From the NCBI GenBank assembly GCA_000004985.1, contig GG738880.1: a stretch of DNA of 64,000 nucleotides; one strand, 5' to 3'. The position numbers were made by a program, and so were the translations under genes. Each line of letters starts with the position of its first letter. Within the stretch, counting starts at the first letter, position 1. The notes under the pieces were generated by a model. That model worked only from the letters and a program-made list of their open reading frames with translations, ran no database searches and had not been told where the DNA came from. The DNA comes from Naegleria gruberi (taxonomy: Eukaryota). This document shows positions 3,577 to 55,511 of this stretch, one piece after another.

Positions 3577-3950
3577 CAATTATTTGGAGCATTTTAAAAT
3601 AACTCCCATTGGTCTTGGATATATTCCTACTCATCCCTTAATACAGTAACACCCACAGTTAGAAGCAGTAATTTCTACCATGAAACAGAATTTAATAACA
3701 ATCCCAATAATGAGATTCAAAAAAGTTACTACTCTATAATCTCCTGTACATTCGCTTCTCACGATCAGTACTGGTAAAACCTCAAAAAATGGGACGTTAC
3801 TGAAAAATTATTTTAAAAAAAAGAACACGATTGAGGTGTGCAACACTAGAGCGCAAAATTTACGACTATTTTTTTTCTAAGGATTTTTCTTCATCAAAAT
3901 CCAAACAAGTTTAATAAGAACAACAACAACAATAATATTGGAGGATTTAA

Positions 3951-4971
3951 TTGTACATAGGGATGATCGTATTACCATCACAAGCCGAAGGAAGGGAAAT
4001 GAAGATGAGTTTCAGACCATCAGCAAAGAATGATTCATCGGCCTTTGTTGCTGCTCTTCATAAGGAACCTTCTGCTGATAAAGTAAAAAAGGAATCAAAG
4101 AAGAATATAGACTCGATAAGACATGTTATACGCGAAGAGGATAAAAAGATTGATATATCATTGACTTCAGTTGATGGCCCTTTATTTGTAAGTGTTGGTT
4201 AAATACCAAAAAGGCGATAAGGAATTAATTCTCTTACTATTATTTAGAATCATGCTGTTAAGAGACATTTCATCAAACCACCAGTAACTCAATCATTGGA
4301 TCGATCAGCAGGAAAGAAGAGAGTGGAAATTACAAAGGAGGAACGTTATGAAAGAGCTGGTGTTTCCACACTGAAGGAAGAAGCACAATTCCATAAAAAG
4401 ATCTTTAAAGAACAACCAGAACGTAGGGATAAACCACAAGGAAAGGCAGTTGTGAGAGCCACACCAGATCCTCAAGTTGCTGGTAAAATATCCTGCCCTT
4501 CTGAAAAGGAATCAAGAAGAAAATTATTTGCCGATAAGAACACTGTTGCAAAGAAGGAATATGACTTTAAGGACAGTAGAAAGAGGATTTCAAGTCCAAA
4601 ATATAAAAGCATTACAGCTCCATTCCCAGTCAGAGGTGGAGGAATGATGCCAGAGGATGCAAAGATTGGTATTAAGGTGCATTCTTCAACCAAACCAAAA
4701 GATCACGGAGATGTTATTTCATATACATTTGGTAAGTGATTTGATTTTTCAATATTAACATTTATTGATAAAAGCATCCATGAAGGATAAGGAACAAAAG
4801 CCAACGGCTCCTAATAAGGAAAGATTAGCTTACGAAAAGTTGATAACAGAATGCGGAAAACAACAAGCTCAAGAGAATAGTGCAGTCTACAATTATTTAA
4901 AATCAAGGAGATCAGCTAGCTCACTAGCTTTAACAGAGCATTTATATGATCACAAAGGTCCAGTTGTGTAG
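3951..4971 (+). CDS. Hypothetical lysine-rich protein. Three exons at 3951..4187, 4248..4731 and 4775..4971, with introns of 60 and 43 nt. The start could be a later in-frame ATG.
   Basis: Three consecutive ORFs in the supplied ORF track are joined by GTAAGT donors (TTT|gtaagtg and TTTG|gtaagtg) and AG acceptors (tatttag| and ataaaag|). I recognised no domain. Confidence 0.5.
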
Positions 4972-6256: not shown

Positions 6257-6330
6257 GCCTTCCTAGCTCAGTTGGCAGTAGCGCTGTCCTAGTAAGACAG
6301 AGGTCTTGGGTTCGATTCCCAAGGGAGGCA
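6257..6330 (+). tRNA. tRNA-Thr (anticodon AGT)
   Basis: 74-nt cloverleaf. The acceptor stem gccttcc/ggaggc has one G-U pair. The D arm is agctcagttggcagtagcgc. The anticodon stem ctgtc/gacag has loop cTAGTaa. The T arm is ttggg-ttcgatt-cccaa with the GTTCGATTC box. A T-run lies downstream. Confidence 0.85.
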
Positions 6331-7218: not shown

Positions 7219-7345
7219 TATTAAACAGTTATTGGTTGGTGTATATTTCTTGTTGTTTTTTTATTGATTGTCATTAAATTGAAAAGCATTTCAATTTAAT
7301 GCTGATTCCTTACACCGATAACAGCGATACAAAGAAGAGGACTTG

Positions 7346-7496
7346 AACTTCTCAAACAATTTGTCCATCAACCTTCACAGGCCATGGTTAGAACCAATGA
7401 ATACTTTTTGATGTTGTTCATAACCTCGAGGAGAGTATGGTTTGATGTTGTTGGTGATTTCATTCGAAGGTTGATGGACAAATTGTTTGAGAAGTT
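7346..7496. repeat. Perfect 31-bp inverted repeat with arms at 7346..7376 and 7466..7496 and an 89-bp spacer. It lies in the intergenic or 3' region between the SDR gene and the FAD-oxidoreductase gene.
   Basis: The left arm aacttctcaaacaatttgtccatcaaccttc is the exact reverse complement of the right arm gaaggttgatggacaaattgtttgagaagtt. The spacer itself contains the ccatgg and ggttagaacc palindromes and a direct tgatgttgtt repeat. Confidence 0.8.
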
Positions 7497-7539
7497 GGCA
7501 AACTGAATTAGTTGACTGAATTATCAAATTCTAATAACT

Positions 7540-8922
7540 TTACATACCTTTTTGGGATTGAAGTATTGAGCAATAAACCAATTTGGTTTCTTTTACATTA
7601 GTTACATCGCCAATGGCAAACATATTTTTGAATGGTTGGTCGTTTTCATCTAAAACTTGTAAATGATTATTAACTTGGATGAAACCGTTCGAATCCAAAC
7701 TATTTGGAAATTCGTCTCTTAACATTTCAGATTGTGGTTTCAATCCAGTGCACAGAAAACAAACATCACATTCAATATCAATGAATGTATTCAATTGACT
7801 ATTCTGAATTCTAAAAGTTGTTGAATTTGATTGAGAAACAATCTCACTCCATAGGTGAATCTTTACATTTCTCATTGTTTCGAATACTTCACTAACTTTC
7901 TTACTTGCTTCTTCACTAGAAGGTTTCATAATTCTGTCAGATCTTTGAATAATATGAATAGTCTTTTCAGGATACTTTTCAGCAATAGAGCCTGCAATTT
8001 CACAGCCAACAAAACCTCCACCCACAATACAAATATCTTTCAGAGATGAGTTTCTGATAAATTCATGAGAATCGAGAATGCTTTGGGAATTGTAACAATT
8101 TACAAACTTGATTTGATTGTCAGAGCGGAGAGTTGGTAAATTGAAACGACATGTACATCCAGTACCAATCAATACGAAATCATATTCTATAGTTTCAGTG
8201 ATTTCCTCAGTTGACTTGGAATGAATTCGATAATGAATGAGGGATTTGTCAATTTTTGAAACCTTTCCAGCAATACAATTTGCTCTTGGAAGAGTGTTTG
8301 CATGATTAACAGATAAATGTTCAGCCACTGCCTTATCTTTGACCATAAAAGGAAAACCAGGAGCAAAATCCAAAGCTCCGTTGAGATCAATAATTGTGAC
8401 ATCAAATAAATCTCTGATGGTTTTATCCTTACATGCAGTGTAGCCACCGAAACCACCTCCAACAATAACTAATCTAGGTTTCATTGAAAGTTTAAATAGG
8501 TTTCTGTCAATTTTGGAAGAATCGTTTGGTTTGAAAAGGTTTAGAACAATTGAAACTAAACCTTGCAATGGATGAAATAGTCCTAAATTGGATGTTTCAG
8601 CAATGGGTTCTATCCAATTCATAATGCACATAATCTTCACTACAAGATAGAATTGACTTTCAGAAATGTCAAAAGTCTTTTCCATTAAATCCATCAAATC
8701 ACCCAAATAAAAGCAGTAATGTTGTAGTTGACCAAACCATTCAATTCTTCTTGAGTGCATTTTCAAACCACTTTCAAACCTTCTCATTCTGTAAATTGAG
8801 AATTCCTTCAAAACCTTGACAAACTCTCCATTCATTATTTCTTCAATTTGTTCTCTTGTCAAATTGGTTTCTGACTTTAAATATTCGAAACCCTTCTTGA
8901 TTACTTCTTGTTGTGTTTGCAT
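7540..8922 (-). CDS. FAD/NAD(P)-dependent pyridine-nucleotide-disulfide oxidoreductase, AIF/FSP1 (AIFM2)-like. The C-terminus may continue into a further small exon through a GTATGT donor at about 7545.
   Basis: Two Rossmann folds: RLVIVGGGFGGYTAC and ICIVGGGFVGCEIAGS. The protein also has GTGCT and AIGDV motifs, with a 150-aa N-terminal extension. The ORF ends ...QSQKGM*, where AAAG|GTATGT is a plausible donor. Confidence 0.65.
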   Translation of the reverse strand: MQTQQEVIKKGFEYLKSETNLTREQIEEIMNGEFVKVLKEFSIYRMRRFESGLKMHSRRIEWFGQLQHYCFYLGDLMDLMEKTFDISESQFYLVVKIMCIMNWIEPIAETSNLGLFHPLQGLVSIVLNLFKPNDSSKIDRNLFKLSMKPRLVIVGGGFGGYTACKDKTIRDLFDVTIIDLNGALDFAPGFPFMVKDKAVAEHLSVNHANTLPRANCIAGKVSKIDKSLIHYRIHSKSTEEITETIEYDFVLIGTGCTCRFNLPTLRSDNQIKFVNCYNSQSILDSHEFIRNSSLKDICIVGGGFVGCEIAGSIAEKYPEKTIHIIQRSDRIMKPSSEEASKKVSEVFETMRNVKIHLWSEIVSQSNSTTFRIQNSQLNTFIDIECDVCFLCTGLKPQSEMLRDEFPNSLDSNGFIQVNNHLQVLDENDQPFKNMFAIGDVTNVKETKLVYCSILQSQKGM

Positions 8923-30847: not shown

Positions 30848-31621
30848 CGGAAAGTTTGCCACAGAAACACTTCTCGGTAATTCCTCATCATCAAAATTTA
30901 CTATTATTCATACAAAAAATTAAAACAACATTTATAATGATTATAATCATCCCCACATTACAATAAACCTACCATTTGTATATTCCGTATTGTTATCGAC
31001 TCGTTGTGTTTGTTGCGTGTGTCTTTTATTTATACCAACATGATTCACTCGTTGTTGCATTTTTTTTTTCGGAATGTTTTGATAATTGATGTTTTCTTCT
31101 TGCTGTTTTGCGCACGTGTCTTTTTTCATACCAAATTTTAAAGCCATTTTCTGTTATGTTAAGAGGAAGAGCCATTTAGGTGATATGAATGAGTGAGGAA
31201 TTGATTTGGTGGATATGGATTGACTTGAAAATGGTTCTGTTTCGAATAATAAACGAATTGATAAAGAGTAAACTTTATTGAGTGAATGAGAAATATTAAA
31301 TAGGCAAGGAATGAAGAACCTTGATCATTTGAATCCTAACACTTGTTGGACAATTGCATGAATTGATATAGAAACTGATCCATAGTACAATTACCACCTT
31401 AATCAAATGAGTGACTCTAGTCTCTAGAATATTTGAATGGCTGGTTCAAGGCGATGCAATTCCAATGGAAGTTCCGTAAAAAGCACAATCGGAATCGAGA
31501 TCACAACATGTTGGAAACCATTTTTGAATGCAAGCTAAATTTGTTTGTATTGTAAACGGAATTACAAAATTTTAATTTTAAAATTTCCAAAAAAGTTTCC
31601 TCGGAATTTGAGATACAGGAC

Positions 31622-31627
31622 TATAAA
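31622..31627 (+). promoter_or_regulatory. Candidate TATA box (TATAAA) ~90 bp upstream of the hsp20 ATG. The same motif is present in copy 2 at about 34776.
   Basis: ctataaattc precedes an A-rich leader. The position suits a core promoter. I found no perfect heat-shock-element triplet, only imperfect GAA/TTC patterns near 31425 and 31479. Confidence 0.3.
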
Positions 31628-31715
31628 TTCAATCACAACACTCTAATCCTTATTTTACACAACAAAAAAAACAAATAATACACAATCACTACTGCAAAAC
31701 AAGCAATATCTGAAA

Positions 31716-32183
31716 ATGAGCTCCAACAATCATCACAATAATAAGCAATTGGCCAGACAACACAGAACCAATAATTGGGTTGATACTTTCTTTGATGATC
31801 CATTCTTGAGAGCATTTGATAGATTTGATGATAGATTAGTTCCTGAATTTAAACCAACTACTGATGTTTCTGAAACTGCAAATGAAGTTAAAATTGTTTG
31901 TAATGTTCCTGGTATGACAAAGGATGATTTAAAGATTGATATTGATGAAGAGCATAGAACCATGACTGTCAGTGGTCATGTTGAAAAGGAAAAGAAGGAA
32001 GATAATGAAAGATATCACTGTGTTGAAAGATCACATGGTTCTTTCAGTAGAACTGTCTATTTACCACCAAATGCTGATTTTGATAAGGTCAAGGCAGCTT
32101 TGGAACATGGTGTTTTGAGAGTTACTATTCCAAAAGTAGTTGAAGAACCAAAGAAAAAGACCAGATCAATTGATATTCAATAA
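31716..32183 (+). CDS. Small heat-shock protein (Hsp20/alpha-crystallin domain), copy 1
   Basis: 155 aa. The alpha-crystallin domain is EVKIVCNVPGMTKDDLKIDIDEEHRTMTVSGHVEKEKKEDNERYHCVERSHGSFSRTVYLPPNADFDKVKAALEHGVLRVTIPK. The translation is identical to copy 2. Confidence 0.9.
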   Translation: MSSNNHHNNKQLARQHRTNNWVDTFFDDPFLRAFDRFDDRLVPEFKPTTDVSETANEVKIVCNVPGMTKDDLKIDIDEEHRTMTVSGHVEKEKKEDNERYHCVERSHGSFSRTVYLPPNADFDKVKAALEHGVLRVTIPKVVEEPKKKTRSIDIQ

Positions 32184-34272: not shown

Positions 34273-35493
34273 TTTTTTCATACCAAATTTTAAAGCCATT
34301 TTCTGTTATGTTAAGAGGAAGAGCCATTTAGGTTGATATGAATGAGTGAGGAATTGATTTGGTGGATATGGATTGACTTGAAAATGGTTCTGTTTCGAAT
34401 AATAAACGAATTGAAAAAGAGTAAACTTTATTGAGTGAATGAGAAATATTAAATAGGCAAGGAATGAAGAATCCTTGATCATTTGAATCCTAACACTTGT
34501 TGGACAATTGCATGAATTGATATAGAAACTGATCCATAGTACAATTACCACCTTAATCAAATTAGTGACTCTAGTCTCTAGAATATTTGAATGGCTGGTT
34601 CAAGGCGATGCAATTCCAATGGAAGTTGCGTAAAAAGCACAATCGGAATCGAGATCACAACATGTTGGAAACCATTTTTGAATGCAAGCTAAATTTGTTT
34701 GTATTGTAAACGGAATTACAAAATTTTAATTTTAAAATTTCCAAAAAAGTTTCCTCGGAATTTGAGATACAGGACTATAAATTCAATCACAACACTCTAA
34801 TCCTTATTTTACACAACAAAAAAAACAAATAATACACAATCACTACTGCAAAACAAGCAACAACTGAAAATGAGCTCCAACAATCATCACAATAATAAGC
34901 AATTGGCCAGACAACACAGAACCAATAATTGGGTTGATACTTTCTTTGATGATCCATTCTTGAGAGCATTTGATAGATTTGATGATAGATTAGTTCCTGA
35001 ATTTAAACCAACCACTGATGTTTCTGAAACTGCAAATGAAGTTAAAATTGTTTGTAATGTTCCTGGTATGACAAAGGATGATTTAAAGATTGATATTGAT
35101 GAAGAGCATAGAACCATGACTGTCAGTGGTCATGTTGAAAAGGAAAAGAAGGAAGATAATGAAAGATATCACTGTGTTGAAAGATCACATGGTTCTTTCA
35201 GTAGAACTGTCTATTTACCACCAAATGCTGATTTTGATAAGGTCAAGGCAGCTTTGGAACATGGTGTTTTGAGAGTTACTATTCCAAAAGTAGTTGAAGA
35301 ACCAAAGAAAAAGACCAGATCAATTGATATTCAATAATTGTTACTATTTTGTAAATAAATTTTTTGTAAAAATACGACCAATAAATTCTTTAAATTAATC
35401 TCTTTATTGTAAATTACGTTTACTTGGACTAGTTGGTGGTCGAACATCAACATCTTCGGCCAAGCTACTGCTTTGAAATAATCCAAATGATTT
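34273..35493. repeat. Copy 2 of the duplicated block, continuous with the intact ankyrin gene downstream
   Basis: See copy 1. Here the block runs without a break into the 35404..37650 gene. Confidence 0.85.
34870..35337 (+). CDS. Small heat-shock protein (Hsp20/alpha-crystallin), copy 2
   Basis: The protein is identical to copy 1. The CDS differs by a silent ACT/ACC change, and the leader also differs. Confidence 0.9.
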   Translation: MSSNNHHNNKQLARQHRTNNWVDTFFDDPFLRAFDRFDDRLVPEFKPTTDVSETANEVKIVCNVPGMTKDDLKIDIDEEHRTMTVSGHVEKEKKEDNERYHCVERSHGSFSRTVYLPPNADFDKVKAALEHGVLRVTIPKVVEEPKKKTRSIDIQ

Positions 35494-41302: not shown

Positions 41303-43333
41303 ATGTCTACATTTGAAAATACATCCAACTCTTCTACTAATATATCTGGTCAGTCAAAGAAGAGTGTATCCTCACCGACATCATCTGCTGATCAATCTCT
41401 TCGTGTTGGTACAACCACAGCAAGTAAATCACAACATGAAGAGTTTGTCCAACATCCACCACATGTACAACAAAGTTATTCTTCAACCACATCTGTAGCA
41501 TCACACCATGAAGCCATGTCTACCAATAATACACATGCATATAAAAGCATGTCTCCTTCCTATGCAAGTCCAGTCCATCATGTTGGTCCTATTGCCACTA
41601 GTACTATTACTACTAACTATCAAAATAGCTCCACAACCGATAGTTCTCAACAAGGAGCAATAAGCAACCATCGTTTATCCAATCATAGAAACTCTCCGCC
41701 AACAAGTGCATCCTTCATTTCCAGAGGCCAAACTTTTGTCCAACAAGAAAATGAATCAAACCACTTTAATAACAACACAACAAAAACATCCAACAACCAA
41801 CACGTTCCTTCTTCATATCCATTGCATCATCAACATTCTAGCATGGTGAATGGTAACAGTGTTGGTGGAAACGGTACTACGACAAATCATTCTAACAACA
41901 ATATGGCAAGCATTCATCACCACGATCAAGACAAGATTGCATATCATTCAAATCAAAGTATGAATAGTACTAATGCATCATACAGTATGAACACTAATTC
42001 ATTTGATAACATGGGTTCGAGATCAATTTCACATTCATCAAATAATGCATCTATACATGATAAAAATCTATTACCTTCTCTTCATATATTGATGGATCCT
42101 CCTACTTCAACCTCACCAAGTAATCCAATTCCACATAGTAATAACTCTCGTGTCTATGCACCTCCTAGCAGTAATCCTAATAATGGTCACATGCGTCAAT
42201 CTTCATCAAATAATTTACAACAATCAAATTATAATATGAATCATCAACCCCCAATCACACCAATTCCTTATTCACAACATGTGAATGATTATCCTCCAAC
42301 TAATCATGTTCCTCCTCCATACATTAACAAGGCTTCACATCACATAGACATGTTTTCAAATCCACCAAATAATAATATCATTAAATCCTCACCATCATCA
42401 TCTAACATGGATACAATGTATGCACCTCGTCCTATCAGGAGTAGGAGTAATACAAGTGGTCCTAATAATGCATCATTTAATTCTCCTCAATCATCCTCTG
42501 TTAATAATCATCATCAAAATACTGACAGTACTGTTTACTCATTTGAACAACCAGCCAAAATTAAAAAGAAGAAAGCCCTTCCTTCTTCTAACGACGATTC
42601 GAATGATGCAGATAAAAAGAATTGGAAAAAGAAGAGATTATTTAGTATTGATGAAGTGACAGATCTTGTTGCATTTGTAAAACAACGTTCCGAGAATCAA
42701 GAATTAACACGTGATGTTAATTATGCTATATTTAAGGAATATGAGAAATTACAAGATGAAAGAAGAAGAGCAAGTGTTTATAGAAAGAAATATGTGCAAT
42801 TATTTGAAAGACATTTGATTTCAAAAGACGGCACAATTGACCCTTCACTCTTCCAAGAATATGATCAAAGAACATCTTCTACTTCTAAATCTAAAGGCTC
42901 ACATCCAGAAGATGCTCAAGAAAAGAGAAAATTCTCTGATGTTGAAGAGGATTCTAGCTCTGAGGGAAGTAATATTGAAGAAGAAAAGAAAACAAAAAAG
43001 CTTAAGAGAGAATACTCTGATGAGGAAGATGAAGAAATAGAGAATGCATCCCCATCTGAGGAAAAGAAAAAGAATATGAATATTTGTGTATCATATAAGG
43101 GAAAGAATTATTTACATTCTATAGAGAAGCAAATTCTCCAAAATTCAGATTCAATCCACAATTATTTCAACCAATTGGCAGTCTCTTCATTGTGTTACAA
43201 CAGCGATACAGAACTCATTAGAAGCGAGTCTATTGAATACTTTGACTATTCATTTGGTGAATTCATTCAAATCAATTCATTTTCCATTACTAGGGTTCTC
43301 AAAAGCAGTCCTGTAAAATTGAGAATAAACTAA
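41303..43333 (+). CDS. Hypothetical S/N/H-rich low-complexity protein with a conserved-looking basic C-terminal region
   Basis: 676-aa ORF with a strongly biased N-terminal 400 aa. The C-terminus is KKNWKKKRLFSIDEVTDLVAFVKQRSENQELTRDVNYAIFKEYEKL.... Confidence 0.45.
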   Translation: MSTFENTSNSSTNISGQSKKSVSSPTSSADQSLRVGTTTASKSQHEEFVQHPPHVQQSYSSTTSVASHHEAMSTNNTHAYKSMSPSYASPVHHVGPIATSTITTNYQNSSTTDSSQQGAISNHRLSNHRNSPPTSASFISRGQTFVQQENESNHFNNNTTKTSNNQHVPSSYPLHHQHSSMVNGNSVGGNGTTTNHSNNNMASIHHHDQDKIAYHSNQSMNSTNASYSMNTNSFDNMGSRSISHSSNNASIHDKNLLPSLHILMDPPTSTSPSNPIPHSNNSRVYAPPSSNPNNGHMRQSSSNNLQQSNYNMNHQPPITPIPYSQHVNDYPPTNHVPPPYINKASHHIDMFSNPPNNNIIKSSPSSSNMDTMYAPRPIRSRSNTSGPNNASFNSPQSSSVNNHHQNTDSTVYSFEQPAKIKKKKALPSSNDDSNDADKKNWKKKRLFSIDEVTDLVAFVKQRSENQELTRDVNYAIFKEYEKLQDERRRASVYRKKYVQLFERHLISKDGTIDPSLFQEYDQRTSSTSKSKGSHPEDAQEKRKFSDVEEDSSSEGSNIEEEKKTKKLKREYSDEEDEEIENASPSEEKKKNMNICVSYKGKNYLHSIEKQILQNSDSIHNYFNQLAVSSLCYNSDTELIRSESIEYFDYSFGEFIQINSFSITRVLKSSPVKLRIN

Positions 43334-43397: not shown

Positions 43398-44000
43398 ATG
43401 CGAAAGGTAAATTCGGCAAAACGACATCAAACCAGTCAATTAAAAAAAATGAAACGAATCGTAACCTACGAGCATAACAATTCGAAACTTATTCTCTTCT
43501 TCTTATTATTGGCAGCTATCATCATCTACATCTCTAACTTTGTAAATTGTGATTGTTCATGGAAACTTCTTCCAAGATGCAAAACTCCAAGAAAAACCTA
43601 TCGACCAAAAACCAATGGATGTGGTCCTCAACAACAACTTCTTTCAGGACTATTAAATGTTGTCACTTCTTCAGTTTCTAGAGAATTTGTCGAATGTTGC
43701 AACCAACACGATCGTTGCTATGGACAGTGTGGTGTTTCAAAATCGGATTGTGATAAACAATTCAGAGCGTGTATGATCAACAAGTGTTATCTGGATCTTG
43801 CGTGTCGACTGAAAGCTTTTAGTTTATTCAATGCAGTCAGTCGACCAAATCCTTGGAGTTGTAGAGCTTACATTGGAGGTCAGATTGCCGCCTGTGATTG
43901 TTCATCACAACCAACAACAAACAATCAAACACCACAAGAAGAACAACCAATTTCCTTACCAGAACCTTCTGTTAAATTATATCGACTTAAAATCAATTAA
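43398..44000 (+). CDS. Group XII secretory phospholipase A2-like protein
   Basis: After the hydrophobic leader LILFFLLLAAIIIYISNFVNC comes NGCGP...ECCNQHDRCYGQCGVSKSDCDKQFRACMINKC. This matches the PLA2G12 signature CC..HDRCYE.CGKSK.DCD..F..C with the His-Asp catalytic dyad. Confidence 0.65.
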   Translation: MRKVNSAKRHQTSQLKKMKRIVTYEHNNSKLILFFLLLAAIIIYISNFVNCDCSWKLLPRCKTPRKTYRPKTNGCGPQQQLLSGLLNVVTSSVSREFVECCNQHDRCYGQCGVSKSDCDKQFRACMINKCYLDLACRLKAFSLFNAVSRPNPWSCRAYIGGQIAACDCSSQPTTNNQTPQEEQPISLPEPSVKLYRLKIN

Positions 44001-44367
44001 GACAAGTGAGGCGAAACTAAAAGTTGTACATTCTTGGAAAAATTCTTCCGAAATCTCAACGAGGAATTAATCATTAAGGATATCCGCTCCTCAAGATTCA
44101 TCAGGTCCAAATAATATAATAGGATTGGACTCCTCTCGGTGTACACCGGTGTACTTGAGTGGAATGAGGAAATTTTACTGTTGAAAATTCAGATAATATT
44201 TTGGCCGTATTGAATCTTAATTATAACACGGCCAAATTATTTTATATAAATTTGGGGTTCCACAAATAAGAATATATTAACTTCTATTTCAACACAGTGA
44301 AAAGTTTGTAAATACCATTACAAATATTATCAAGCTGCTTAAGATTAAGGTTTTAAGGAAATGAATG

Positions 44368-44487
44368 GCTACGGCCATATCACGATGAATGCACCTCATC
44401 CCGTCCGATTTGAGAAGTTAAGCATCGTCGAGCCACATCAGTACTGAGGTTGGAGACAACTTGGGAACCTGTGGTGCTGTAGTCTTT
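44368..44487 (+). rRNA. 5S ribosomal RNA gene
   Basis: GGCTACGGCCATATCACGATGAATGCACC...GAGAAGTTAAGCATCGTCGAGCC...AGTACTGAGGTTGGAGACAACTTGGGAACCTGTGGTGCTGTAGTC aligns along its whole length with eukaryotic 5S, including GCTACGGCCATA, GAAG.TAAGCA, AGTACT and GTGCTGTAG. A T5 terminator lies at about 44485..44489. Confidence 0.9.
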
Positions 44488-44637
44488 TTACTTTCATTAT
44501 TATAATAGTGCAGATTGTAAACGTAAAGGCGAACTGACTTGGGTTTATTTTTTGACACCTCTACCAGCGCCATGTTTAATAACTGTCATAATACTAAGGA
44601 AAATTTTATGATAAGTAATCGAAAAGAATTGTGAAAT

Positions 44638-44700
44638 CGGGTGTGGTATAGTGGTAGCATTCCAGACTGTCACTCTGGCGACCCGGACCTCCTACTCGAG
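44638..44700 (+). pseudogene. tRNA-Asp(GTC)-like element with a degenerate or absent T-arm (tRNA pseudogene or tRNA-derived fragment), 150 bp downstream of the 5S gene
   Basis: GGGTGTG-GTATAGTGGTAGCAT-TCCAGA-CTGTCAC-TCTGG matches the tRNA-Asp acceptor, D arm and anticodon arm (anticodon GTC). The 3' part (CGACCCGGACCTCCTACTCGAG) lacks the GTTCGAWTC T-loop and cannot pair back to the acceptor. Confidence 0.35.
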
Positions 44701-45043
44701 TAATAATTTTATATTTTCTAGTTCAATATTTATTATTTTTAGTTCAATTTTCATTTTTTGGTAGTTTAGATATTTTACTTGAATATTGTGTTTTTATTTT
44801 TTTTAAAATTTCTTCTATTTCCATTTTTAGAAGCCTCTGTTTGTACCACATTTTTTTTCACAGAGACAGATAGGTTATAGAAATTATCAAATTTCTAAAT
44901 TTCATCACCATCGACAACATAATATCAGATTAGAATCTTTCATTTTCGAAATGGTGTTTTAGATAAAAAGCCTAAATGCTAGTATAATTAAATCTCAATT
45001 TATTAAATATATATTAACCATTTTCAATGTCTACATTTTTAAT

Positions 45044-46375
45044 CTATTGATTTGGAAGTCTGAAATTCATTCTATCGATGTATAACCACAATTTTCTTGA
45101 ATCAATTTCTAATGGACAAGCATATGGAACATTCCAATCATTGGCAGTTTTACTACCCCATGTATGACTTAATAGTTTGACAGTTGAAGTGTAGAGAGCT
45201 GGATTCATTCTCATCTTTTGTTGCATTGGCAAGTAGTAGAACTCAACCATTGATCCAAACCCTCCACCAATGTTTGAGAATTGAACTTGAGAAACTGAGT
45301 TACCATCGAAACTAATTGGACAGCCAGCGAGAGAGGAATATTTGAATAGCTCATTAAGCAATTGATCGCAGTCTTGATCTGGAACACAGTTTTCAACAAC
45401 TACATATCCGAAACGATGGAAGAAATCAATGTGCTTTTGAGTTAGGAAATGATCATTCTCTTTCAATATTTGACTCAAGATGCTTGAGTTTTCTCCATTT
45501 TCTTCCATAATACTTTCGTATGGTTTCTCATTATAAAGACATTCACCTAATGGGGTCAATGGTACTAAATCATTTTCTGGGTGCAAATACATTTGCTCAA
45601 CTCTAAACTTGGTTCCAAAATCATCTGGATGTTCAAAAGTCTTTCTCTTTTCTCTCAATTTCTCAATTGTGTTTCGGTTGACTGGATCTGTACAACTGTA
45701 AGCATGATAAAACACTGAACGAGGTCTATCCATGTGATTGGCGTCTGAATTTCTGTGAGCCGTTCTGTTATCAAAAAAGATGAAATCTCCCTTCTTGATT
45801 GGAACATATTCTAAAGCATCATGCTCCTTTACAATCTTTCTCATATAGCCCAACATTTCGTCTGCATTCTCCAACTTGGTCAATTCAGAGCTTGGTGAAG
45901 GAGCTTTCCATTCTTGAGGAATTCTCTTAACTTTTCTAACCATTTCAAACAATGGCTCATCTTCCTCTTGATTAAATCTAATGTGATAAGAACTAATCCA
46001 TGGAGATTTAACTCTGAAACCTTTTCCATTTCTAACTTTTTGATCCATGGCAGGAAAATATCTTTCTGCAACGGAGGCAAATCCAGGAATTACTTCCAAA
46101 CCTCCTTCTTTCTTGTTTGGATCAGAATCACCATCTGTTAAACAAACCATAGATTGAAAAGGTCTGAATCTGTCCAATTCTTCATAGGTCATGTCAGATT
46201 TTAATTTTTTCCACAAATTGTAAGGCCAAGAATCCAAATGAAGACCAGTTCCTTTTTGAATAAGGAGGGCTTCTTCTTCTTCTGTGGTTTTTACCTTTTG
46301 TGGTTGTTGATTAGTAGTGCTCATAGTAGTGCAAGTTGATTTTGGGAATTTTTTTTGAATTGCCAAGATTTTCAA
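45044..46375 (-). CDS. Phytanoyl-CoA dioxygenase (PhyH)-like 2OG-Fe(II) oxygenase, apparently a duplicated or two-domain arrangement. The start is probably the internal ATG (MSTTNQQ...).
   Basis: 443 aa. It has PhyH-like segments LHLDSWPY...GDFIFFDNRTAHRNSDANHMDRPRSVFYHAY and a second similar half (FHRFGYVVVEN...GGGFGSMVEFYYL). Confidence 0.5.
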   Translation of the reverse strand: MKILAIQKKFPKSTCTTMSTTNQQPQKVKTTEEEEALLIQKGTGLHLDSWPYNLWKKLKSDMTYEELDRFRPFQSMVCLTDGDSDPNKKEGGLEVIPGFASVAERYFPAMDQKVRNGKGFRVKSPWISSYHIRFNQEEDEPLFEMVRKVKRIPQEWKAPSPSSELTKLENADEMLGYMRKIVKEHDALEYVPIKKGDFIFFDNRTAHRNSDANHMDRPRSVFYHAYSCTDPVNRNTIEKLREKRKTFEHPDDFGTKFRVEQMYLHPENDLVPLTPLGECLYNEKPYESIMEENGENSSILSQILKENDHFLTQKHIDFFHRFGYVVVENCVPDQDCDQLLNELFKYSSLAGCPISFDGNSVSQVQFSNIGGGFGSMVEFYYLPMQQKMRMNPALYTSTVKLLSHTWGSKTANDWNVPYACPLEIDSRKLWLYIDRMNFRLPNQ

Positions 46376-53775: not shown

Positions 53776-53832
53776 AAGATTCGGTTTTTATTGAGCGACT
53801 ACAGCTATTTACTGTAAAGATTTAGGTGGGTA
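53776..53832 (+). repeat. Dispersed ~57-bp repeat, copy A. Copy B is at 55454..55511 in the same orientation.
   Basis: aagattcggtttttattgagcgactacagctatttactgtaaagatttaggtgggta compared with aagatacggtttttattgagcgactacagttatttactgtaaagatttgtggtgggta shows 3 differences. A weaker second similarity (tttgtWtcgaatSctWW...tttcttcagtt) lies at 54465 and 55712. Confidence 0.7.
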
Positions 53833-55453: not shown

Positions 55454-55511
55454 AAGATACGGTTTTTATTGAGCGACTACAGTTATTTACTGTAAAGATT
55501 TGTGGTGGGTA
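55454..55511 (+). repeat. Dispersed ~57-bp repeat, copy B
   Basis: See copy A. Confidence 0.7.

Follow-up and report, generated by a model that had tools for sequence, protein, structure and literature searches.

A solitary 5S rRNA gene and a neighbouring probable tRNA-Asp pseudogene on a Naegleria gruberi contig

5S gene arrangements in Naegleria and in other eukaryotes

The genes for 5S ribosomal RNA (rRNA) of Naegleria gruberi are dispersed: 279 putative copies, unlinked to the ribosomal DNA (rDNA), have been described (PMC3369914), lying on more than 100 scaffolds and mostly tens to hundreds of kb apart (PMC3369914 Table S1), and the extrachromosomal rDNA plasmid of the genus encodes the 18S, 5.8S and 28S rRNAs only and no 5S rRNA (PMC12482156). 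Internal control elements have been reported for the N. gruberi 5S genes, while TFIIIA was not identified (PMC3369914). Here we analyse a stretch of 64,000 nucleotides from N. gruberi contig GG738880.1 (assembly GCA_000004985.1), referred to throughout as the window, in which a 5S rRNA gene is followed on the same strand by a sequence resembling a transfer RNA (tRNA) gene for aspartate, tRNA-Asp(GTC), that has no T arm. In our judgement the locus very probably consists of two independent RNA polymerase III (Pol III) genes placed head to tail, a working solitary 5S gene and a dead copy of tRNA-Asp(GTC). The features at the locus are as follows.

44367-44485, + strand: 5S rRNA gene, full length and, from its sequence, apparently functional (Rfam RF00001)
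44485-44489, + strand: T5 run, read from the sequence as a Pol III terminator, at the immediate 3' end of the 5S gene
44486-44636, + strand: AT-rich spacer of 151 nt between the 5S gene and the tRNA pseudogene
44637-44700, + strand: tRNA-Asp(GTC) pseudogene of 64 nt with its T arm destroyed (Rfam tRNA match below threshold; ARAGORN mitochondrial mode; peptide matches to open reading frames)
44683-44692, + strand: lesion, with CCGGACCTCC (10 nt) in place of the canonical 17-nt T arm CCGGGTTCGATTCCCGG, which holds the B box (comparison with open reading frame P0027, see below)
44707-44710 and 44714-44717, + strand: two T4 runs, 7-17 nt past the pseudogene (read from the sequence)

Since the rDNA plasmid carries no 5S gene and 5S genes are dispersed in the genus, a solitary 5S gene between protein-coding genes is the expected state. 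Like the dispersed N. gruberi 5S genes (PMC3369914), the 119-nt gene of the window stands alone in an intergenic region, apart from the 18S-5.8S-28S plasmid, and has a T run at its end; we see no difference of substance from them. An earlier reading of this DNA, made from the sequence alone (the sequence-only reading), had concluded that the organism disperses its 5S genes; this agrees with the published description of Naegleria 5S genes (PMC3369914, PMC12482156) and was already known. The tRNA-like element, in turn, resembles ordinary nuclear tRNA pseudogenes, such as tRNAscan-SE or Infernal label 'pseudo', in its canonical isoacceptor parent, in the loss of a structural arm together with an internal promoter element and in its sub-threshold score. 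It is unlike them in that the damage is limited to one 10-nt patch, so that the pseudogene appears to be young, and in that part of this patch matches the antisense strand of a tRNA-Glu gene exactly.

Linked 5S and tRNA genes have been described in other eukaryotes. In the tRNA-5S dicistrons of Yarrowia lipolytica, as in the window, the two genes lie on the same strand a few hundred bp apart and the 5S genes are scattered (PMC2566860). However, the Yarrowia tRNA comes first, is intact and is fused to the 5S sequence, driving a common transcript (PMC2566860), whereas in the window the 5S gene comes first with a terminator of its own, a 151-nt spacer follows, the tRNA copy is dead and the pairing does not recur. 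The T5 run directly after the 5S gene, followed by the spacer, also speaks against co-transcription or fusion of 5S and tRNA. The tRNA arrays of Entamoeba that encode 5S rRNA (PMC2652664) likewise place 5S and tRNA genes as close neighbours, and a small cluster of this kind is present at one of the Naegleria-type loci examined below (L023); the Entamoeba arrays are long and tandem, with spacers of short tandem repeats (PMC2652664), whereas no tandem repetition is seen at the 5S/tRNA locus. The pair in the window differs from the Yarrowia and Entamoeba systems in order, spacing, terminator, integrity and recurrence, and is like them only superficially. The element also recalls the T-arm-less (TV-loop) mitochondrial tRNAs of nematodes and other animals, in that it consists of an acceptor stem, a D arm, an anticodon arm and a short connector. 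Unlike them, it has a nuclear, GC-rich context, and its parent is a cytosolic tRNA-Asp that keeps an intact T arm in relatives. To our knowledge, T-arm-less tRNAs occur only in the mitochondria of some animals, together with adapted elongation factors.

The 5S gene and the damaged tRNA-Asp copy

The 5S gene matches RF00001 with 105.4 bits in an Rfam search, against a gathering score of 38, and covers model positions 1-120; no second 5S gene lies within the 64 kb. The sequence-only reading had recognised a real solitary 5S gene with a T run here, and only its coordinates need shifting by one base, the start being 44367 and not 44368. The 3' end reads ...GTAGTCT and is followed by TTTT at 44486-44489, and TCT or CCT followed by TTT(T) terminates seven of the seven Naegleria-type 5S copies that we compared. 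When these copies were aligned and read by eye, compensatory changes were seen in helix I (C3/G117 to T3/A117 in loci L025 and L026) and in the 3' domain (GCCACA/TGTGG to GCTGCA/TGCAG in L024, L025 and L026), as would be expected of working genes. By analogy with its family, the gene would be transcribed from its internal control region and transcription would stop at its own T5 run.

The element downstream was the sole sub-threshold tRNA match when the 64 kb were searched with Rfam. Aligned end to end with the tRNA family (RF00005), it scores 24.4 bits, under the gathering score of 29, and eight bases fill the 17 model positions of the T arm. Its E-value was 0.014 in a search of 801 nt and 1.1 in the search of 64 kb, both over 4227 families, and we estimate a value of about 3e-4 for the tRNA family alone. 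ARAGORN made no call on it in standard mode, lowered thresholds included; the metazoan-mitochondrial mode, in which arms may be missing, reported tRNA-Asp(gtc) at 44635-44702 with a 2-bp vestige of the T arm. The score and the 151-nt spacer are in keeping with the earlier description of a decayed tRNA-Asp(GTC)-like element without a T arm about 150 bp downstream of the 5S gene. The acceptor stem has 7 bp, two of them G-U pairs, with G as the discriminator, and the variable loop has 4 nt. The D arm is present with an intact A box and one A-C mismatch in its stem, and the anticodon arm displays GTC in a 7-nt loop, CUGUCAC, with U33 and a purine at position 37. G+C content is 58% and the D loop, AGTGGTA, is of the cytosolic type. 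Folded for minimum free energy, the element does not form a cloverleaf and gains no stability over shuffled sequences (z = 0.2). No B-box-like motif was found within about 2.6 kb on either side, the nearest being at 42014 and 49852. A split or permuted tRNA gene was also considered and is ruled out, no B-box or T-arm sequence being present within that distance. Within the spacer (44486-44636) Rfam detected no noteworthy RNA family, and the spacer has no likeness to the downstream flanks of other 5S genes. The two T4 runs past the element might be the former tRNA terminator or might simply belong to an AT-rich spacer, as T4 is common at 66% A+T.

A chimeric peptide built from the open frames of the element was used as a query and found three ENA open reading frames (ORFs), P0026, P0027 and P0028. 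P0027 reads ...NRVWYSGSIPDCHSGDP GSIPGTRV..., of which the first 17 residues equal the sense frame of window positions 44635-44685 (17/17). P0026 and P0028 carry RVARVTVWNATTIPHPI, which equals an antisense frame of the same 51 nt (17/17), and then diverge. In all three ORFs the match to the window ends after 44685. The tail of P0027, ...GDPGSIPGTRV, is compatible with CCGGG-TTCGATT-CCCGG-TACTCGAG, that is, with an undamaged T arm and, after it, the same 3' acceptor strand and discriminator that the window has; this acceptor strand is ACTCGAG in both the back-translation and the window. Joining the first 46 nt of the window element to the P0027-compatible 3' part gives a 71-mer that ARAGORN identifies as tRNA-Asp(gtc) in standard mode. 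On this peptide-level comparison, the element is a pseudogene of the canonical 71-nt tRNA-Asp(GTC) gene of the lineage. As read from P0027, the parent gene has a CGAC variable loop and a CCGGG/CCCGG T stem; an alternative account of the damage, a clean 9-nt deletion in a GGAGG/CCTCC T stem, was dropped on the strength of this loop and stem. A chance resemblance to a tRNA is ruled out by the peptide matches, and a mitochondrial origin (nuclear mitochondrial DNA segment, numt) by the 58% G+C, the cytosolic-type D loop and the cytosolic-type T arm in the matching ORFs.

The two antisense ORFs merit separate mention. P0026 and P0028, with 217 and 188 aa, were called as long ORFs; each crosses tRNA-Asp-like sequence in the antisense direction, and both have a non-canonical T arm, that of P0026 back-translating to a TCCAATT loop and that of P0028 having a T stem one G short. 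Such an ORF stays open only if the codon in the T loop is not a stop, and TTCAATT closes it where TTCGATT does not. The requirement for an open antisense frame may therefore favour non-canonical T-loop variants among ORFs such as P0026 and P0028; even so, more damaged tRNA-Asp copies may exist.

The lesion amounts to a net loss of 7 nt, which one simple deletion is insufficient to explain, and it contains foreign sequence, ACCTCC at 44687-44692; outside the patch, 50 + 8 nt of the element are unchanged. Because the damage is confined to this patch and the rest of the gene is intact, we infer a single, recent and complex mutational event, not slow decay. In a tRNA gene, whose Pol III promoter is of type 2, the B box is the main anchor of TFIIIC, and the T loop is needed for the tertiary contact between D loop and T loop that locks the elbow of the tRNA. 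In our reading, the 17-nt T arm of the tRNA-Asp copy has been replaced by the 10 nt of CCGGACCTCC with the rest of the gene left as it was. Since this lesion removes the B box, the copy would be transcribed poorly or not at all, and with the T loop gone any transcript would be unable to fold into an L-shaped tRNA, so that the copy is predicted to be silent or to yield an unstable product.

Several points weigh against reading the element as a dead gene. Its comparison with intact tRNA-Asp genes was made at the level of peptides, and we deduce its death from the loss of the B box and the T loop. With its A box and whole acceptor stem preserved, and with a strong Pol III gene 151 nt upstream of it, the element might conceivably be transcribed to some extent. 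Moreover, the search for copies with the same lesion covered the window, the related loci and public scans, and others may exist in the genome. An assembly or sequencing artefact in the T arm of a tRNA-Asp gene that is in reality intact and functional would account for the identity, at the peptide level, of everything outside the 10-nt patch to intact genes, which is what a local assembly error would give. We nevertheless regard an artefact as improbable: a net loss of 7 nt together with no fewer than 3-4 substitutions, in a stretch that is not repetitive and has a mixed composition, is atypical of homopolymer or polishing errors.

It is very improbable, in our view, that the element encodes a functional T-arm-less tRNA or another purposeful tRNA-like RNA, be it a regulator of the tRNA-half kind or a recruiter of TFIIIC/TFIIIB that aids the 5S gene, even though it offers a complete 7-bp acceptor stem with discriminator G, a canonical anticodon loop, an A box and downstream T runs, and although 5S transcription may be unusual in the genus, TFIIIA having been reported as not found in N. 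gruberi (PMC3369914). The element exists as one copy in all scans and most 5S genes are without it; it offers no B box to TFIIIC and folds no better than shuffled sequences; the replacement sequence forms no conserved TV-type loop; and relatives carry the intact T arm, T-arm-less tRNAs being otherwise known only from some animal mitochondria. For the earlier suggestion of a tRNA-half-like transcription unit we found nothing in favour. Equally hard to sustain is the proposal, also made from the sequence alone, that the element is the head of a tRNA-derived short interspersed nuclear element (SINE). Such an origin would fit its tRNA ancestry and intergenic position, and we consider it extremely unlikely: a SINE head would be expected neither as a single copy in 64 kb, with no other in the roughly 190 kb that the related loci comprise or in public scans, nor without a B box and with a genuine 3' acceptor strand and discriminator, and there is no body, tail or target-site duplication. 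Specifically, no further copy of the element was detected in the window or in the related loci, and an exact-pattern scan of JGI metagenomes and IMG/VR for its core gave no match.

Pairing of 5S and tRNA genes at other loci

Two routes were taken to other 5S loci. A pattern comprising loop C and helix III of the 5S sequence, run over JGI metagenomes, returned 15 contigs, only one of which (L009) is Naegleria-type, its 5S gene being 1 nt different from that of the window. The remaining contigs belong to one or more other eukaryotes and are mostly AT-rich, with 26-37 differences among full-length 5S copies; in IMG/VR and GTDB genomes the 5S pattern gave no match. The second route used a chimeric peptide from the open reading frames of the 5S gene, and led to ten spurious ORFs that run over Naegleria-type 5S genes and whose flank-encoded parts are all different. 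Five of these ten loci were compared as DNA, which with L009 makes six.

L022: 5S 100% identical to that of the window
L023: 5S identical save in loop C, where a T is changed to C and 2 nt are inserted
L024: 5S 95.8% identical; from a sample in which an exact N. fowleri protein was likewise present
L025 and L026: a third 5S variant

At all six loci the likeness to the window ends, by BLAST, within a few bases of the 5S gene, apart from about 23 nt upstream in L023. More lenient local alignments between the flanks of the window and of L023 were set aside as not meaningful, BLAST having found nothing past those 23 nt or so. At five of the loci (L009, L022, L024, L025 and L026) no tRNA was detected in at least 520 nt of downstream flank with Rfam (E cut-off 10 or 5) or ARAGORN, and a tRNA-Asp gene or tRNA-Asp-like element adjoins the 5S gene at none of the six. 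Tandem or direct repeats were likewise not found at the 5S/tRNA locus of the window. As judged from these sequences, a fixed 5S/tRNA-Asp unit does not exist, and the recurrent linked unit that had been suggested is not supported: unrelated flanks at other 5S copies, which the sequence-only reading had named as a refuting observation, are seen at five of six other loci, among them L022, with its identical 5S gene, and L009.

The remaining locus, L023, has a tRNA-Met gene 101 nt upstream and a tRNA-Glu gene 189 nt downstream of its 5S gene, all on the same strand. This contig (ENA ERZ929261, contig k127_101776, 1354 nt) is a compact, Naegleria-type cluster of Pol III genes, with the following content in its own coordinates.

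1-51, + strand: partial tRNA
209-280, - strand: tRNA-Glu(TTC)
470-590, - strand: 5S rRNA gene (92 bits)
692-764, - strand: tRNA-Met(CAT)
1255-1328, + strand: tRNA-Glu(TTC)

In loop C its 5S gene reads CCTCACCCCTCGTCCG against CCTCATCCCGTCCG, and this copy may be a variant or a pseudogene. Naegleria-type 5S genes can thus lie in small clusters with tRNA genes, as L023 exemplifies. What had been proposed as the decayed partner of a Pol III gene unit consequently divides into two parts: the fixed unit falls away, and the L023 order of tRNA-Met, 5S and tRNA-Glu leaves room for a loose cluster. The pair in the window could accordingly be the relic of a loose Pol III gene neighbourhood, its adjacency not being random, which would be compatible with two independent genes of which one is dead. 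We hold this to be possible but doubtful. It gains from the L023 cluster, which comes from the same metagenome as L020, a contig closely similar to part of the window (see below), and whose 5S is identical to that of the window outside loop C; moreover, fewer than 1% of 5S genes would be expected to have a tRNA within 300 nt, by an estimate that assumes a few hundred tRNA genes in about 40 Mb. It is opposed by the five loci without a tRNA and with unrelated flanks, and by the lack of a tRNA at 0/14 5S loci of another AT-rich eukaryote (VFQM/VFQO/VAPL/LLBY contigs and one JGI contig), and the window itself, having been picked for its pairing, is not countable, which leaves one of six loci.

A more far-reaching proposal is that Naegleria 5S genes lie preferentially beside tRNA genes, with tRNA-bound TFIIIC/TFIIIB helping the 5S gene, and that the window shows such a helper just after it was disabled. 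The reported failure to find TFIIIA in N. gruberi makes this conceivable; we consider it unlikely. If it held, the remaining A-box half might still act; in a rarer variant, a 64-nt T-arm-less RNA would be made and used.

L023 also bears on how the tRNA-Asp copy acquired its lesion. A 13-mer across the lesion, ACCCGGACCTCCT (44681-44693), recurs without a difference in the antisense strand of the two tRNA-Glu(TTC) genes on this contig, and among the 26 loci that were fetched the 12-mer CCCGGACCTCCT occurs only at these two genes (L023 229-240 and 1296-1307). The matching stretch of tRNA-Glu comprises the T stem, the variable loop and part of the anticodon stem, and tRNA-Asp and tRNA-Glu have the CCGGG/CCCGG T stem in common. 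No tRNA-Glu gene is present in the window. A break in the T loop, repaired by synthesis primed on the CCCGG microhomology of an inverted tRNA-Glu gene with 6-7 nt copied, would yield exactly the sequence observed. We put forward a templated repair patch from tRNA-Glu only tentatively as the origin of the lesion, the alternative being coincidence: the match was noticed post hoc, and its chance probability is about 0.005 by an estimate that allows a few dozen templates.

Two further observations were made among the metagenome contigs. Those labelled L005-L008 and L010-L017 (VFQM/VFQO contigs; 33-40% G+C) hold solitary 5S genes on separate short contigs of another, AT-rich eukaryote; these genes are a few nt apart from one another and, in full-length copies, 26-30 nt from that of the window, with no tRNA nearby, and dispersed single 5S genes are therefore not peculiar to Naegleria in these metagenomes. 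At 3910-3978, L025 has a sub-threshold match to U6atac (28.9 bits against a gathering score of 33, E = 7e-4) inside a called ORF of 490 aa, which is either an overlooked gene for a minor-spliceosome small nuclear RNA or a chance match.

Genomic surroundings and significance

The gene content of the window is of the Naegleria nuclear genome type, the organism being a Naegleria-type heterolobosean, and the intergenic gap that holds the 5S gene measures 1043 bp between two convergent ORFs.

43398-44000, + strand: PLA2G12-like ORF, flanking the 5S gap upstream
45044-46375, - strand: Gig2-like/PhyH ORF, flanking the 5S gap and convergent

The Gig2-like protein is 66% identical to its counterparts in N. 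fowleri and N. lovaniensis, 60% to that of N. gruberi and 50% to that of Willaertia. It is 99% identical to an ENA metagenome protein, and the DNA of the respective contig, L020, is 97.3% identical to the window; this similarity ends at window position 44924, 224 nt short of the tRNA-like element. The Gig2-like loci of N. fowleri (L001-L003) and N. lovaniensis (L004) have no other gene in common with the window, and no 5S or tRNA gene.

Upstream sequences of the 5S gene were compared among the Naegleria-type copies, a question made relevant by the report that TFIIIA was not found in N. gruberi, and no clear conserved upstream promoter element was found among them. The window (44344-44366) and L023 have a TTAAGATT motif in common, some 25-30 nt ahead of where the 5S gene starts, and ATTATAGA occupies a similar upstream place in L009, with nothing obvious in L025 and L026. 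About 130 nt upstream of the 5S gene, at 44200-44237, lies a 9-bp perfect inverted repeat, TTTGGCCGT...ACGGCCAAA, about 200 nt past the stop codon of the PLA2G12-like ORF. The repeat folds far more stably than shuffled sequences do (z = -4.1). None is present upstream of the other 5S copies compared, and the repeat may be a 3'-end signal of the PLA2G12-like gene. The 14-bp palindrome GTACACCGGTGTAC to which the sequence-only reading drew attention is present, one base off, at 44141-44154, and it is not special: 11 perfect 14-nt palindromes occur in the window, where shuffled sequences give 7.0 +/- 2.7, and 34% of the shuffles hold at least one 14-nt palindrome that is equally GC-rich, which is the level of chance.

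Elsewhere in the window, the only intact tRNA gene is a tRNA-Thr(AGT) at 6257-6330 (53.9 bits). B-box-like motifs occur also at 7339-7349 (- strand) and 7686-7696 (+ strand), and a hairpin at 7340-7499 weakly matches mir-186 (35 bits). Two copies of about 1.06 kb, at 31121-32180 and 34273-35334, are 99-100% identical and 3154 bp apart. Each consists of an Hsp20/alpha-crystallin gene and about 500 bp of the DNA upstream of it. The two encoded proteins agree in 177 of 178 residues, and two unannotated ORFs lie between the copies; judged by this identity, a small heat-shock gene has recently undergone a tandem-like duplication here. Positions 53776-53823 and 55454-55501, 1678 bp apart, hold the two copies of a 48-nt direct repeat with 96% identity.

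The pairing seen in this window is real, and both of its members are ordinary, the 5S gene being a regular member of a dispersed family and the element a regular tRNA pseudogene. In an annotation, this locus should count as one solitary 5S rRNA gene plus one tRNA-Asp pseudogene, the latter excluded from the tRNA set. Naegleria-type 5S genes are single and dispersed, and occasionally lie in small clusters together with tRNA genes. The pseudogene is a clean case in which a single local lesion in the B box inactivated a tRNA gene, possibly through a short templated repair patch, and as such it could be of interest for work on mutation at highly transcribed Pol III genes.

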